Virus record (IMG/VR): IMGVR_UViG_2744054627_000004
DNA from: a virus
Lineage: Duplodnaviria; Heunggongvirae; Uroviricota; Caudoviricetes
Reading direction: 5' to 3' (one strand)
Length of the DNA stretch: 19,912 nt
Part shown: positions 177 to 7,106 of the stretch, piece by piece
Layout of the letters: each line of letters starts with the position of its first letter
How positions within the stretch are numbered: the stretch's first letter is position 1
Position numbers and translations under genes: made by a program
The notes under the pieces: generated by a model
What the model was told of the DNA's origin: nothing
The model's input: only the letters and a program-made list of their open reading frames with translations
Database searches by the model: none

Positions 177-1157
177 TTATAACGTCACTCCGCCTTTTAG
201 TGGATTCAGAGCGACGGCATTTTGCAGATAGTCAGGCGCAAGGTGCGCATAGGCCATCGTCTGCTGAATGCTCGCATGTCCCAGAATCTGTTGCAGTGCG
301 ATTATATTGCCACCATTCATCATGAAATGGCTTGCGAATGTATGCCGCAGGATGTGGGTTGCCTGATTGGGTGGTATATCAGGTTTCACTCTGCGTAAAA
401 TCCCGCAAAATTTCTCATAATCAACTTTGAATAATTTGGCGCTGGCCTCCTCTTTAACTTTTTTCTCCAGTTCCTCAGAAATCGGCACGGTTCGCTTTTT
501 ACCGTTTTTGGTTTTCAGGAAGGTAACCCTGCAATTTGTAATCTGTGCTGGTTTTAGCGTGGCAACTTCCGTCCATCTTCCTCCAGTGCTCAGACATAAA
601 AGCGCGACAAGTAAGTCATCACCAGCCAAAACATTTAACAGTTTTTCGATTTCTGCTTTTTCCAGGAACGTCATTTCAGGGTTGGCCTCCGCCAGTGGCG
701 GCAGTCCGTGAATTGGGTGTTGCCCGGAAAATTCATCCAATTGAATTAATTTTGTGAACATGCCGGATAATCTGTACATGTCACGGTTTATCGTTGCGGC
801 ACTGATACCATCACGTAGTCGCATGGAACGATAATCCATCAAAGCCCTTTTACTCATCCTGCTCACTGGTATATCACCTATGCCGCTGATGGTTTTGAGT
901 AGATGATTAAACTCTTTTGTTCCATGATCGTGGTTTTGCCCGTGATATTTCCACCAGATGTCCAGCAACTCACTCAAAGTCCGGCGGTCTGCTCGCTGGC
1001 CTCCCCATTCTTTCTGACTGGCATTGGCGATTGTGTATCGCTCAAATGCTAGTGCTTCAGCTTTTCTTTCGAATTTCCTGCGGATGCGTTTTCCGTCGCG
1101 ACCGCGAGGTCTAATGTCCACTTCATAGCGACCATCATCGAGCTTCTTAATTGCCAT
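177..1157 (-). CDS. int: Tyrosine integrase, P2 Int-like
   Basis: Listed ORF 177..1187; likely true start is the Met of MAIKKLDDGRYEV at 1157, preceded by GGAGG. C-terminal catalytic region HILRHTFASHF ... LGHASIQQTMAYAHL is typical of tyrosine recombinases. Confidence 0.9.
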   Translation of the reverse strand: MAIKKLDDGRYEVDIRPRGRDGKRIRRKFERKAEALAFERYTIANASQKEWGGQRADRRTLSELLDIWWKYHGQNHDHGTKEFNHLLKTISGIGDIPVSRMSKRALMDYRSMRLRDGISAATINRDMYRLSGMFTKLIQLDEFSGQHPIHGLPPLAEANPEMTFLEKAEIEKLLNVLAGDDLLVALLCLSTGGRWTEVATLKPAQITNCRVTFLKTKNGKKRTVPISEELEKKVKEEASAKLFKVDYEKFCGILRRVKPDIPPNQATHILRHTFASHFMMNGGNIIALQQILGHASIQQTMAYAHLAPDYLQNAVALNPLKGGVTL

Positions 1158-1226
1158 AAGAAAGCCCTCCGGCGCTGTATTCACCATCTTGGTAGCAAAT
1201 GGTGAAAATGTAATCTTTATATAGAG

Positions 1227-1519
1227 TTAGCCAATCCTTTTCGCGGAGTGGTTGGACTCTGTTGACTCTGGCCCAATGTGCGCGAGAGCCGGTGCGATTT
1301 GTCCTGCGTCCGGCGCGGTTTTATCTGTCATAAGCCATAGAGCATATTTTTGGAATGTGGGATGCATAGTGATTTTTAGCAAAGCTGTGCCACCGGGTTC
1401 AAAGTTTCCTCCTTCATATTTTTAAGTGTGCTTAGCGGTAACTCTATGATTTCACAGAATTTTGATTGGCTTAGCCCTTCAGCCTCACGCAAGGCCTTAA
1501 TCTTTTCGCTTAATTTCAT
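1227..1519 (-). CDS. C: Immunity repressor C (P2 C-like), interrupted by an apparent 1-nt frameshift
   Basis: Manual translation: ATG at 1519 gives MKLSEKIKALREAEGLSQSKFCEIIELPLSTLKNMKEETLNPVAQLC, stop at 1375-1377. The shifted frame continues ...KYALWLMTDKTAPDAGQIAPALAHIGPESTESNHSAKRIG to a stop at 1227-1229. Span is 293 nt, one short of a multiple of 3. Divergent from cox as in P2. Confidence 0.7.
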
Positions 1520-1640
1520 TTGACATGGTGCCTATATAGGGACTAAATTCCCTCAAAACTGGAACCTATATAGGTTCCATTGATTTGAGAATAAACCAGC
1601 GTCTAAACGGTTTTGAGTGGTTTAGAAAGAGCTGGATCCT
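1520..1640. promoter_or_regulatory. Immunity/early switch region (Pc/Pe promoters and operators) between C and cox
   Basis: TTGACA at 1520-1525; palindrome CCTATATAGG at 1531-1540; perfect 18-bp palindrome GGAACCTATATAGGTTCC at 1561-1578; related CCATATATGG at 1650-1659 over the cox start. Confidence 0.55.
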
Positions 1641-1928
1641 ATGAGGGTACCATATATGGACGCTGAAAATTATGTGATTCAGTATCCGCTTGATGCGGTT
1701 CATGTGGATAAATTTGCTGATTTATTAGGGAAGCCAAAGACAGCCGTCAGTGAAATGGTGAAGGCAAATAAATTACCAATTATTGAATTGCGTGATCCTT
1801 GCAAACCGAAGGCTCGTGCCGGTGAAAAATGGGTTTTCATTCCTGAGTTTAATCGCGCTGTACGTGAGGCGTTTTATAACCGACCGGTTGAACAGCGTGA
1901 TGCATGGCTTTTGTGGATGGGGTTGTGA
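1641..1928 (+). CDS. cox: Cox-like excisionase / early-switch regulator
   Basis: 95-aa ORF with P2 Cox-like features (...KLPIIELRDP...RAGEKWVFIPEFN...RDAWLLWMGL). Alternative start at 1656 (MDAENY) has a better GAGGG RBS. Stop at 1926-1928. Confidence 0.8.
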   Translation: MRVPYMDAENYVIQYPLDAVHVDKFADLLGKPKTAVSEMVKANKLPIIELRDPCKPKARAGEKWVFIPEFNRAVREAFYNRPVEQRDAWLLWMGL

Positions 1929-5934: not shown

Positions 5935-6212
5935 ACTGAAATGAACAGCGTTGCAAGTGTGATAAAAATCATTATACTGTTTTTATATACAGCACCTTGA
6001 TCTGGAAAGATGCTATAAATGTATATTTCTATAAAAATATATGGTTTATTGATTGTGTATGCTCACTATCAAATTTATACTCCGCGCGCAATGTTGAGTA
6101 TGCTTAAGATATAGCGTTTACAATTCCAGGCTTGAAGGCTCGGGTATAGGTAAAAATTGAGTGTTCTCGGTTGCTTTTCGTGACATAAGAGGACAGCAAA
6201 GGAGGTTGAGTA

Positions 6213-6682
6213 TGTACAGCCCATTGAACATCGCGAATAAGTTTATAGAACTTGCTTGCGCGGCTGGTATGCCAATCACCCAGATGCAGGCACAAAAGCT
6301 GACCTATATAGCACATGGTATAAATCTGGGTTACAAAGGGACGCCTTTGTTAACGACACCAGTTTGTGCATGGCGTTATGGTCCAGTGGTTCCAGTTCTG
6401 TATAACCATCTTAAAGTTTATGGCCGTAGTCCCATAACACAACCAATACAAGTTCCATCGGCAATTTCTCAGGAGTTTGACCCTATGACTGAGCAGTTGC
6501 TGCAGAACGTTTATAACGTTTACGGTAAATATACCGCTGAGGATTTATCTGCTTTCACACATCGTGAAGGTACTCCTTGGAAGCAAGCAATGGATAGTCG
6601 TATGGATATCATTCCTGATTCCGTTATTCAGGATTACTATCAAAAGCTGCTACACGGCGATAGCAATTGCATCGGACTATGA
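6213..6682 (+). CDS. Panacea-domain (DUF4065 / GepA / PanA-like) protein, putative antitoxin-type component
   Basis: 156-aa ORF with strong RBS AAGGAGG 6 nt upstream of the ATG at 6213 (listed ORF starts earlier, at 6161, in the same frame). Signature KLTYIAHG...AWRYGPVVPVLY...YG...THREGTPW resembles what I recall of DUF4065; not checked by HMM. Confidence 0.6.
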
Positions 6683-6696
6683 GTCCGAATTAAGAT

Positions 6697-6722
6697 AACC
6701 CCGTCTATGTACGGGGTTTTTT
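6697..6722 (+). terminator. Intrinsic terminator between the Panacea-like gene and the next ORF
   Basis: Stem ACCCCGT (6698-6704) / ACGGGGT (6711-6717), loop CTATGT, then a T6 tract (6717-6722) that runs directly into the ATG at 6723. Confidence 0.6.
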
Positions 6723-7106
6723 ATGCCTGACGATAATAAGAAAGTGACAGCTGAATTTGATAAAGACCTTCTCAGACGATTGCAGCAAGCTGAGCAGAAT
6801 CTGATAACTGCCTCTGCGGCTTTGGGAGATGAGGGCTGTTGGGATGAAGAATCTCATGAGCCTGAGTCTGTTGAGGACGCTGTTGATGAAATGCAAAAGG
6901 AAGAAGAGGATGCTGCGACCATGCAGCGTTTGGATTTATCCAGTCTTAATTTTCAAATTGCTGAATTGAGTCGCTGTGTTGAAACTATAAGCACTAACCT
7001 TGAAAGCGTACAGGCAGAAACCAAAAGAAAAATGCGGAAACCGACGGCCTGCTTACGGACAATGAGCTCCGTAGAACTATGGCTGATAAAACATATCAAT
7101 TCATGA
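6723..7106 (+). CDS. Acidic, coiled-coil-like hypothetical protein (127 aa as read)
   Basis: Listed ORF; very D/E-rich central segment (DEGCWDEESHEPESVEDAVDEMQKEEEDAATMQ). The 3' end may be frameshifted into the downstream TM ORF at the A5 run 7029-7033. Confidence 0.5.
   Translation: MPDDNKKVTAEFDKDLLRRLQQAEQNLITASAALGDEGCWDEESHEPESVEDAVDEMQKEEEDAATMQRLDLSSLNFQIAELSRCVETISTNLESVQAETKRKMRKPTACLRTMSSVELWLIKHINS

Follow-up and report, generated by a model that had tools for sequence, protein, structure and literature searches.

The window analysed here, the whole 19,912 nucleotides (nt) of IMG/VR record IMGVR_UViG_2744054627_000004, is a P2-like (Peduovirus) prophage with the gene order int, C, cox, orf78, B, A. 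Between the immunity repressor gene C and cox it carries two palindromes, here called O1 and O2. Comparison with mapped phage switches and with natural variants suggests, with a probability that we put at about 0.82, that they are the operators of the promoter Pe in the L-413C/R18C/'P2-T22' immunity type. Each operator would be a dyad-symmetric site of ~20 bp, with the consensus TGGAACCTAT-ATAGGTTCCA, and would bind one dimer of the 97-amino-acid (aa) helix-turn-helix (HTH) repressor C. With O1 between the −35 and −10 hexamers of Pe, O2 just downstream of the start and the two centres 34 bp (~3.2 helical turns) apart, two bound C dimers, which probably interact and bend the DNA as P2 and WPhi C do, would keep RNA polymerase off Pe. 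With Pe repressed, cox and the replication genes would be silent, and a phage with the same operators would meet superinfection immunity. In this model we infer C binding, the occupation of each site by one symmetric dimer, and cooperativity.

Two directly repeated palindromes at Pe

O1 and O2 are built on the same decamer, CCTATATAGG, which is self-complementary at 10/10 positions and occurs in exactly two exact copies in the 19.9 kb, identical at 10/10 positions and in direct orientation. Self-complementarity extends to 20/20 positions at O2 and to 16/20 at O1. A previous sequence-only reading of this DNA had correctly located TTGACA (1520–1525), the first decamer (1531–1540; the second is at 1565–1574) and a third palindrome, CCATATATGG (1650–1659). 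The perfect palindrome that it gave as 18 bp (1561–1578) is real but measures 20 bp (1560–1579). It had also set palindromic operators here against direct-repeat operators in P2, which is a false choice: the CCTATATAGG decamers are direct repeats with the length, spacing and position of those in WPhi, and because the unit is self-complementary the sites are palindromes as well as direct repeats.

Are these features simply to be expected in an AT-rich intergenic spacer, given that TATATA-like strings are frequent near promoters? We made 20,000 dinucleotide-preserving shuffles of the 136-bp C-cox spacer and found a perfect palindrome of at least 18 bp with P=6e-4, an exact direct repeat of at least 10 bp with P=3.4e-3, and a palindrome and a direct repeat both of at least 10 bp with P=2e-4. 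When one mismatch was allowed, CCTATATAGG matched the window three times (0.13 expected), and no shuffle of the window equalled the observed count. Moreover, O1 and O2 are near-invariant among 420 E. coli genomes. Chance thus appears a practically negligible explanation.

The sites follow the design of the WPhi operator

Operators of three P2-like phages serve as references (PMC1904268): the half-sites of P2 (8 bp, 22 bp centre-to-centre) flank the Pe −10, those of P2 Hy dis (8 bp, 26 bp centre-to-centre) flank the Pe −35, and those of WPhi (10 bp, 34 bp centre-to-centre) flank the Pe −10. As related in PMC1904268 and PMC1904263, mutagenesis showed the WPhi half-sites to be the C operator (Liu & Haggard-Ljungquist 1999), and in the account given by PMC1904268 repression was lost only if mutations were present in each of the two half-sites.

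The window resembles WPhi in most respects. C has 97 aa in both and is collinear, and the TTGACA of Pe abuts the C start codon, an arrangement (CAT-TTGACA) that also recurs in most WPhi-like loci. Two identical 10-bp direct repeats, 34 bp apart, flank the −10, and a dyad at the Pe transcript's 5′ end contains O2. The order is CAT-TTGACA-gtaacc-TATTGGTGAC-t-TATATT...TATTGGTGAC in WPhi and CAT-TTGACA-tggtg-CCTATATAGG-gac-TAAATT...CCTATATAGG in the window, where O1 lies between the Pe hexamers and extends 2 nt into the −10. By homology with WPhi we infer a Pe start at ~1554–1555, which would place O2, centred 34 bp from the centre of O1, at about +6 to +25. The two phages differ in the half-site itself, TATTGGTGAC against CCTATATAGG: the WPhi unit is self-complementary at 0/10 positions, whereas the window unit is so at 10/10 and is extended to 20 bp at O2. 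The C-cox spacer is also shorter in the window than in WPhi (136 bp vs 152 bp); WPhi has ~19 bp extra upstream of the cox ATG, and therefore its Pc −35 position falls inside cox in the window. Overall, the window has the WPhi design with a different, self-complementary recognition unit.

P2 belongs to the same C family and shares with the window convergent Pe and Pc, the opposition of C and Cox, and two repeats flanking the Pe −10. Its half-sites, GTTTAGAT, differ in being 8 bp long, 22 bp apart and non-palindromic, so that a symmetric dimer must read an asymmetric site, whereas the arms of each window site are equivalent. A P2-type GTTTAGAT pair with 22-bp spacing was not found at Pe in the window, which has only unrelated inverted 7-mers at 1603–1624. 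Non-palindromic half-sites are regarded as a hallmark of the C family (PMC2995052), from which the fully self-complementary window decamer departs. As for a 186-type CI/Apl/CII switch, the window differs in having a 97-aa, P2-C-like repressor with a Phage_Cox partner. The comparison with P2, 186 and WPhi that the sequence-only reading had proposed thus bears out a specificity unlike that of P2 and excludes a 186-type switch, with the qualification that the layout is that of WPhi and only the sequence is its own.

Lytic phages with intact C are altered in both sites

Independent phage isolates were set against the prophage consensus over the 742 bp of the C-cox region. R18C (MN016939) was published as a 'virulent' P2-like phage whose virulence the paper leaves unexplained (PMC6823313). 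It has exactly two differences in the 742 bp, one per decamer: 1539 G>T in O1 and 1565 C>T in O2, with a chance of ~4e-4 for one substitution in each decamer. Yersinia phage L-413C (NC_004745), a clear-plaque mutant (PMC3448106), has 1531 C>A in O1, and its O2 is altered in the outer arm by 1577 C>A; it further differs in the −10 (1548 T>C) and by one change in cox. C is wild type in both phages, and the four operator variants (1531A, 1539T, 1565T and 1577A) were not found in 5,426 complete E. coli genomes.

In the numbering of the 20-mer, position 6 was hit twice, independently, and positions 14 and 18 once each; every substitution lies at a G:C pair of the arms and none in the TATATA core. 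The pattern suggests that the site extends beyond the decamer. By analogy, it agrees with WPhi, where both half-sites have to be altered before repression is lost; prophages with single-site operator variants exist (L092 and L132). If each unit is read by one dimer, R18C and the plague-diagnostic phage L-413C would be natural operator double mutants.

A third isolate, HQ103, carries the exact operators of the window and a C gene truncated by a 7-bp deletion. When the intact C of an E. coli EC12 prophage of the same class was expressed, it blocked HQ103 plaques (PMC10321612). It is from this literature that we take the statement that intact C of the window type blocks plaques of a phage with the same operators.

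Conservation of O1 and O2

The C-cox region is 98.7–99.7% identical in L-413C, R18C, NC_041848 (an 'Escherichia phage P2' from O157:H43 T22), FSL SP-004, P2_AC1 and HQ103 and up to 99.9% identical in E. coli prophages, and it is at least 99% identical in 401/5,426 complete E. coli genomes. A 61-bp block of Pe and the operators is present in 420 of the 5,426 (about 8%). Among these carriers, the 30-nt −35/O1 block is identical in 407 and the O2 30-mer in 415, but only 315 agree over all 61 bp, the other 105 differing somewhere; variation is thus concentrated between the operator sites. The prophage variants that we sampled affect the −35, the −10 or single positions at the periphery of an operator. 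Some of the sampled copies have T1549C (TAAATC) or T1548C together with T1549C (TAAACC) and have lost the conserved final T of the −10; such prophages may have a weakened lytic promoter. In IMG/VR, pattern scans gave 34 and 36 contigs, and all 34 contigs retrieved by the exact O2 20-mer have an intact O1.

An intact repressor behind a sequencing artefact

In the window, C is present as two fragments of open reading frame (ORF) parted by a 1-nt homopolymer deletion at 1419 (relative to L-413C and NC_041848), where T6 has become T5. The window differs from NC_041848 by ~50 single-base gaps, nearly all of which are one base lost from a homopolymer run. Because such under-calling is systematic across the window, we take the C frameshift from its sequence pattern to be a homopolymer sequencing error of the platform, not prophage decay. 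Similar gaps occur, for example, at 86, 2394, 2446, 3477, 4251, 7637 and 9760, and the gaps disrupt C, B, A and many late genes. A genuine C pseudogene was considered and ruled out by these ~50 similar gaps, and all other C copies examined are intact except that of HQ103. The frame correction on which the sequence-only reading had counted does yield an intact 97-aa C once the T is restored; the frameshift itself is artefact, not biology.

The restored C is 100% identical to C of L-413C, R18C, FSL SP-004, P2_AC1, NC_041848 (P2-T22) and many prophages, and to WP_000777029.1. It matches Pfam HTH_3 and, over residues 3–97, P2 C in PDB 2XCJ/2L49 (phmmer, E=1.9e-21). Alignment of the C family shows 34 invariant columns and a conserved C-terminal GQIAPALAH region. 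By these sequence matches, the window protein is assigned to the P2-family C immunity repressors. It is 66% identical to P37 C, 56% to WPhi C and 43% to P2 C. Aligned residues of helix 3 differ, being K34/N39 in the window C and N34/H39 in WPhi C; these positions match poorly conserved base-contacting residues of P2 C (PMC2995052).

Members of one immunity group share at least 95% C identity (PMC3448106). Because the identities to P2 C (43%) and WPhi C (56%) are below that limit, the window is classed by sequence as a separate, heteroimmune type. The different immunity group that had been proposed from the palindromes is thus supported in that specificity and operator sequence are unlike those of P2 and WPhi, but it is the sequence, not the palindromy, that defines the group. 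A P2-C-like C-terminal half, to which the sequence-only reading had also pointed, is present. The C-terminus of P2 C is disordered and dispensable for repression (PMC2995052), and since the C-terminal half is conserved family-wide, it says nothing about specificity.

Operator units in the C family

What form does the unit take elsewhere in the family? One scan of species-representative genomes gave 80 loci encoding C homologues, here numbered with the prefix L. In the WPhi-like subfamily the layout is kept: after the C start codon come TTGACA, a spacer with O1, TAtAtT and a dyad enclosing O2. An unbiased search for the best pair of 10-mers, which recovers the mapped P2 and WPhi operators, selected the CCTATATAGG decamers in the class of the window. 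Direct repeats matching at 9/10 positions or better were found in 19/42 regions (0.8% of shuffles), and a perfect dyad with 7-bp arms near Pe in 35% of 40 WPhi-like switch regions (3% of shuffles). Units are spaced by 29–34 bp in most enterobacterial loci, by 22–25 bp in Pseudomonas and P2, and by 33 bp in Marinobacterium.

Three forms of unit were seen: (i) palindromic units in the window class, Dryocola L027, Enterobacter L023, Trabulsiella L034 (GGTTCCTTATAAGGAACC) and Serratia L018 and in Pseudomonas, Ferrimonas and Marinobacterium loci; (ii) asymmetric direct units in WPhi, P2, Sodalis L020 and Kosakonia L009; and (iii) asymmetric inverted units around the −10 in P37 (L006, ~636–680), Serratia L028, Kosakonia L015, L012 and L013. 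Sodalis L020 has direct units despite a recognition helix almost the same as that of inverted-unit relatives. From these sequences, the unit seems free to flip its orientation within the C family.

One HTH dimer usually covers a dyad site of 14–20 bp. Massad et al. proposed that one C dimer occupies each 'half-site', with one monomer reading the repeat (PMC2995052), and the palindromic classes agree with a view of each unit as the full site of one dimer. It may be, although we would give this somewhat less than even odds, that the 'half-site' of the P2 family is a complete site for one dimer and that the window class represents the undegenerated 20-bp palindrome, with both monomers equivalent and the relatives showing every intermediate. 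If so, the puzzling use of asymmetric DNA by a symmetric dimer would come down to the extent to which one arm has degenerated. Massad et al. also noted the structural similarity of P2 C to Esp1396I C and P22 c2 (PMC2995052). The operators of C.Esp1396I and the classical dyad-symmetric ones of P22 c2, 434 and lambda cI resemble the design proposed for the window in their directly repeated palindromic sites, each bound by one HTH dimer, and in dimer-dimer contacts, but the Esp1396I sites are 15 bp apart as compared with 34 bp here; these operators are analogies in site use, not homologues.

Points against the operator assignment and alternative roles

Several points weigh against O1 and O2 as symmetric operators of C. 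The operator map is drawn from homology and natural variants. Changes elsewhere in the genomes of R18C and L-413C may contribute to their lytic behaviour, and the failure of R18C to form lysogens is stated, not dissected, in its paper. Kosakonia L009 is a close relative with 82% C identity and the same recognition helix, and its direct repeats, TGGAACCTATATGTGT, have an inner core with the same asymmetry in each copy; because the helix is shared and the repeat asymmetric, perfect dyad symmetry is not required by this repressor type. The RNA hairpin at O2 is conserved, and part of the symmetry of O2 may serve the RNA. Finally, H-NS binds the Pe promoter fragment of HQ103 (PMC10321612).

Could the O2 palindrome act mainly in RNA, as a 5′ stem-loop for mRNA stabilisation or attenuation? 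Folding of the Pe leader from ~1554 predicts a 5′-terminal hairpin of −11.5 kcal/mol (z=−4.0); a 26-nt imperfect inverted repeat was found here as well, and a wider imperfect dyad spans 1547–1592. In favour of an RNA element, the mapped +1 of WPhi (the promoter feature of AJ245959, in agreement with the published 82-nt transcript overlap) lies where an equivalent hairpin, with the non-palindromic O2 of that phage inside it, has its base, a dyad stands just after the −10 in most WPhi-like loci (z<−2 in 19/41), Photorhabdus L013 retains the stem through a G-U pair, and a terminator scan flagged O2. Yet the same decamer occurs at O1, which is not transcribed from Pe, both lytic variants are mutated in O1 as well as O2, and spacing and position equal those of the mapped protein-binding sites of WPhi. 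An RNA role can explain neither O1 nor the paired mutations. The T-tract TTGATTTGAG is poor, and termination so early (+6 to +25) in an essential operon is implausible; an intrinsic terminator as the main role, for which the scan had flagged 1560–1579 plus TTGATTTGAG, was set aside for its weak tail and its position. We therefore regard a mainly RNA role as distinctly unlikely, and see the O2 hairpin as a layer on top of the operator function, not as a rival to it. In WPhi (L003, 1068–1095) and most WPhi-like loci, the dyad at or near the Pe +1 that encloses O2 is AAAGGT...ACCTTT; the stems of the 5′ hairpins vary in sequence between loci while their pairing is kept.

That the TATATA cores serve as nucleation sites for H-NS or another nucleoid protein instead of C is very unlikely. 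Such a role would agree with the behaviour of HQ103, identical to the window in its operator region, whose Pe and Pc fragments were bound by H-NS in electrophoretic mobility shift assays and whose Pe was repressed by it at 21 C (PMC10321612). However, this binding is known for whole fragments and not for individual sites; the repetition of an exact 10-mer with G:C arms at the spacing seen in WPhi, four lytic-variant substitutions that all lie at G:C pairs outside the AT core, and the block of HQ103 plaques by intact C alone all speak for a different reader of the sites. Cox binding at the palindromes was also considered and set aside, as nothing was found to support it; the Cox sites of P2 are direct repeats near Pc.

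A third palindrome at the cox start

The palindrome CCATATATGG contains a possible cox start, as the sequence-only reading had noticed; this ATG (1656–1658) is the annotated start in NC_041848 and, identically, in E. coli RefSeq records. The kinship to O1 and O2 that had been suggested for CCATATATGG is slight: it has in common with them only CC/GG ends and the GGTACC arm, and it is not convincingly an operator.

Might it nevertheless be a third, weaker C operator, O3, that autoregulates Pc or occludes initiation of cox translation? CCATATATGG is one of four CC(W)6GG sites in the 19.9 kb, three of which are in the switch, in the C-cox spacer, and its left arm, GGTACC, is similar to GGAACC in O2. 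The palindrome shares sequence with the cox ATG and with a weak candidate for the Pc −10 that is positionally homologous to the mapped Pc of WPhi; P2 C is known to autoregulate Pc (PMC3448106), and Serratia L018 has three CCATATATGG-type cores, the third between O2 and cox. On the other hand, the AT core of CCATATATGG is out of phase with those of O1 and O2, 6/10 decamer positions differ in register, and only 12/20 positions are self-complementary when it is extended to 20 bp. Neither P37, whose cox start is similar, nor L009, the nearest relative that has a different operator, carries the palindrome, and neither lytic variant is mutated in it. On balance we consider an O3 rather unlikely in the window. 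In Serratia quinivorans L018, the first 100 nt upstream of C hold CCATATCTGG at O1 and CCACATATGG at O2, and a 12-bp perfect palindrome, GCCATATATGGC, lies between O2 and cox, which hints that some family members have a third operator.

Locus layout and other features of the window

The features of the switch are collected in Table 1. Pe (TTGACA, 18-bp spacer, TAAATT) is the sole sigma-70-like site that the promoter scan found in the region, and as in P2 it is followed by cox, orf78 and B.

Table 1. Features of the int-C-cox region, in window coordinates
Feature	Position	Strand	Remarks
int	177–1187	-	P2-type gene order int/C/cox
C immunity repressor gene	1227–1519	-	97 aa once the missing T at 1419 is restored
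Pe −35 hexamer TTGACA	1520–1525	+	promoter scan; adjoins C start codon (CAT 1517–1519)
O1, putative operator	1526–1545	.	20-bp imperfect palindrome TGGTGCCTATATAGGGACTA; core decamer CCTATATAGG at 1531–1540
Pe −10 hexamer TAAATT	1544–1549	+	promoter scan; aligns with WPhi −10 TATATT
Predicted 5′-terminal stem-loop of Pe transcript	1554–1587	+	RNA fold; O2 forms the upper stem
O2, putative operator	1560–1579	.	perfect 20-bp palindrome TGGAACCTATATAGGTTCCA; core decamer CCTATATAGG at 1565–1574
Third palindrome CCATATATGG	1650–1659	.	contains cox ATG; candidate role only
cox	1656–1928	+	Pfam Phage_Cox E=1e-23; Shine-Dalgarno GAGGG 1643–1647

Pc could not be convincingly placed: the standard promoter scan gave no minus-strand match in the region, and a relaxed scan gave only weak candidates, the best by position being ATCACA-18-TATGGT (−10 on the minus strand, 1654–1649). 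A Pc reporter was silent in HQ103 (PMC10321612). The overlap of the Pe and Pc transcripts contains the inverted 7-mers TCTAAAC (1603–1609) and GTTTAGA (1618–1624), which resemble the P2 operator half-site GTTTAGAT and form the second stem of the predicted leader fold; they could be related to Cox or Pc.

Outside the switch, two direct copies of TGTGGACAC adjoin int (143–151 and 154–162) and match the P2-type Int arm-site consensus tgTGGaCa (PMC3448106). NC_041848 has cdt toxin genes between A and Q, where the window differs (6161–7106). The window encodes there a protein of 173 aa in which a Panacea / SocA-like antitoxin domain was recognised (PF13274, E=7e-18). The next ORF, of 127 aa, has no Pfam or PADLOC match; PADLOC gave no match for the cargo ORFs. 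Judged by the domain, the pair could be a PanA-type toxin-antitoxin system in a P2 cargo hotspot.

Significance

The C-cox locus is a known and very common switch, and its sequence became public with the L-413C genome. By 2007, only the operators of P2, P2 Hy dis and WPhi had been located (PMC1904268). Neither a dyad-symmetric operator nor the R18C and L-413C operator mutants were found in the literature accessible to us, outside which Karlsson 2006 and Garcia 2008 lie, and a full-text literature search for CCTATATAGG returned no phage paper.

The assignment of O1 and O2 to C would provide an operator map for an immunity type whose operators were unmapped as of 2007. It would also offer a simple explanation for the lytic growth of R18C and L-413C despite an intact repressor gene, which is relevant to the choice or engineering of strictly lytic P2-like phages. 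Finally, a natural operator that is a perfect palindrome would be a good substrate for C-DNA co-crystals, which could settle how the C family reads direct repeats.

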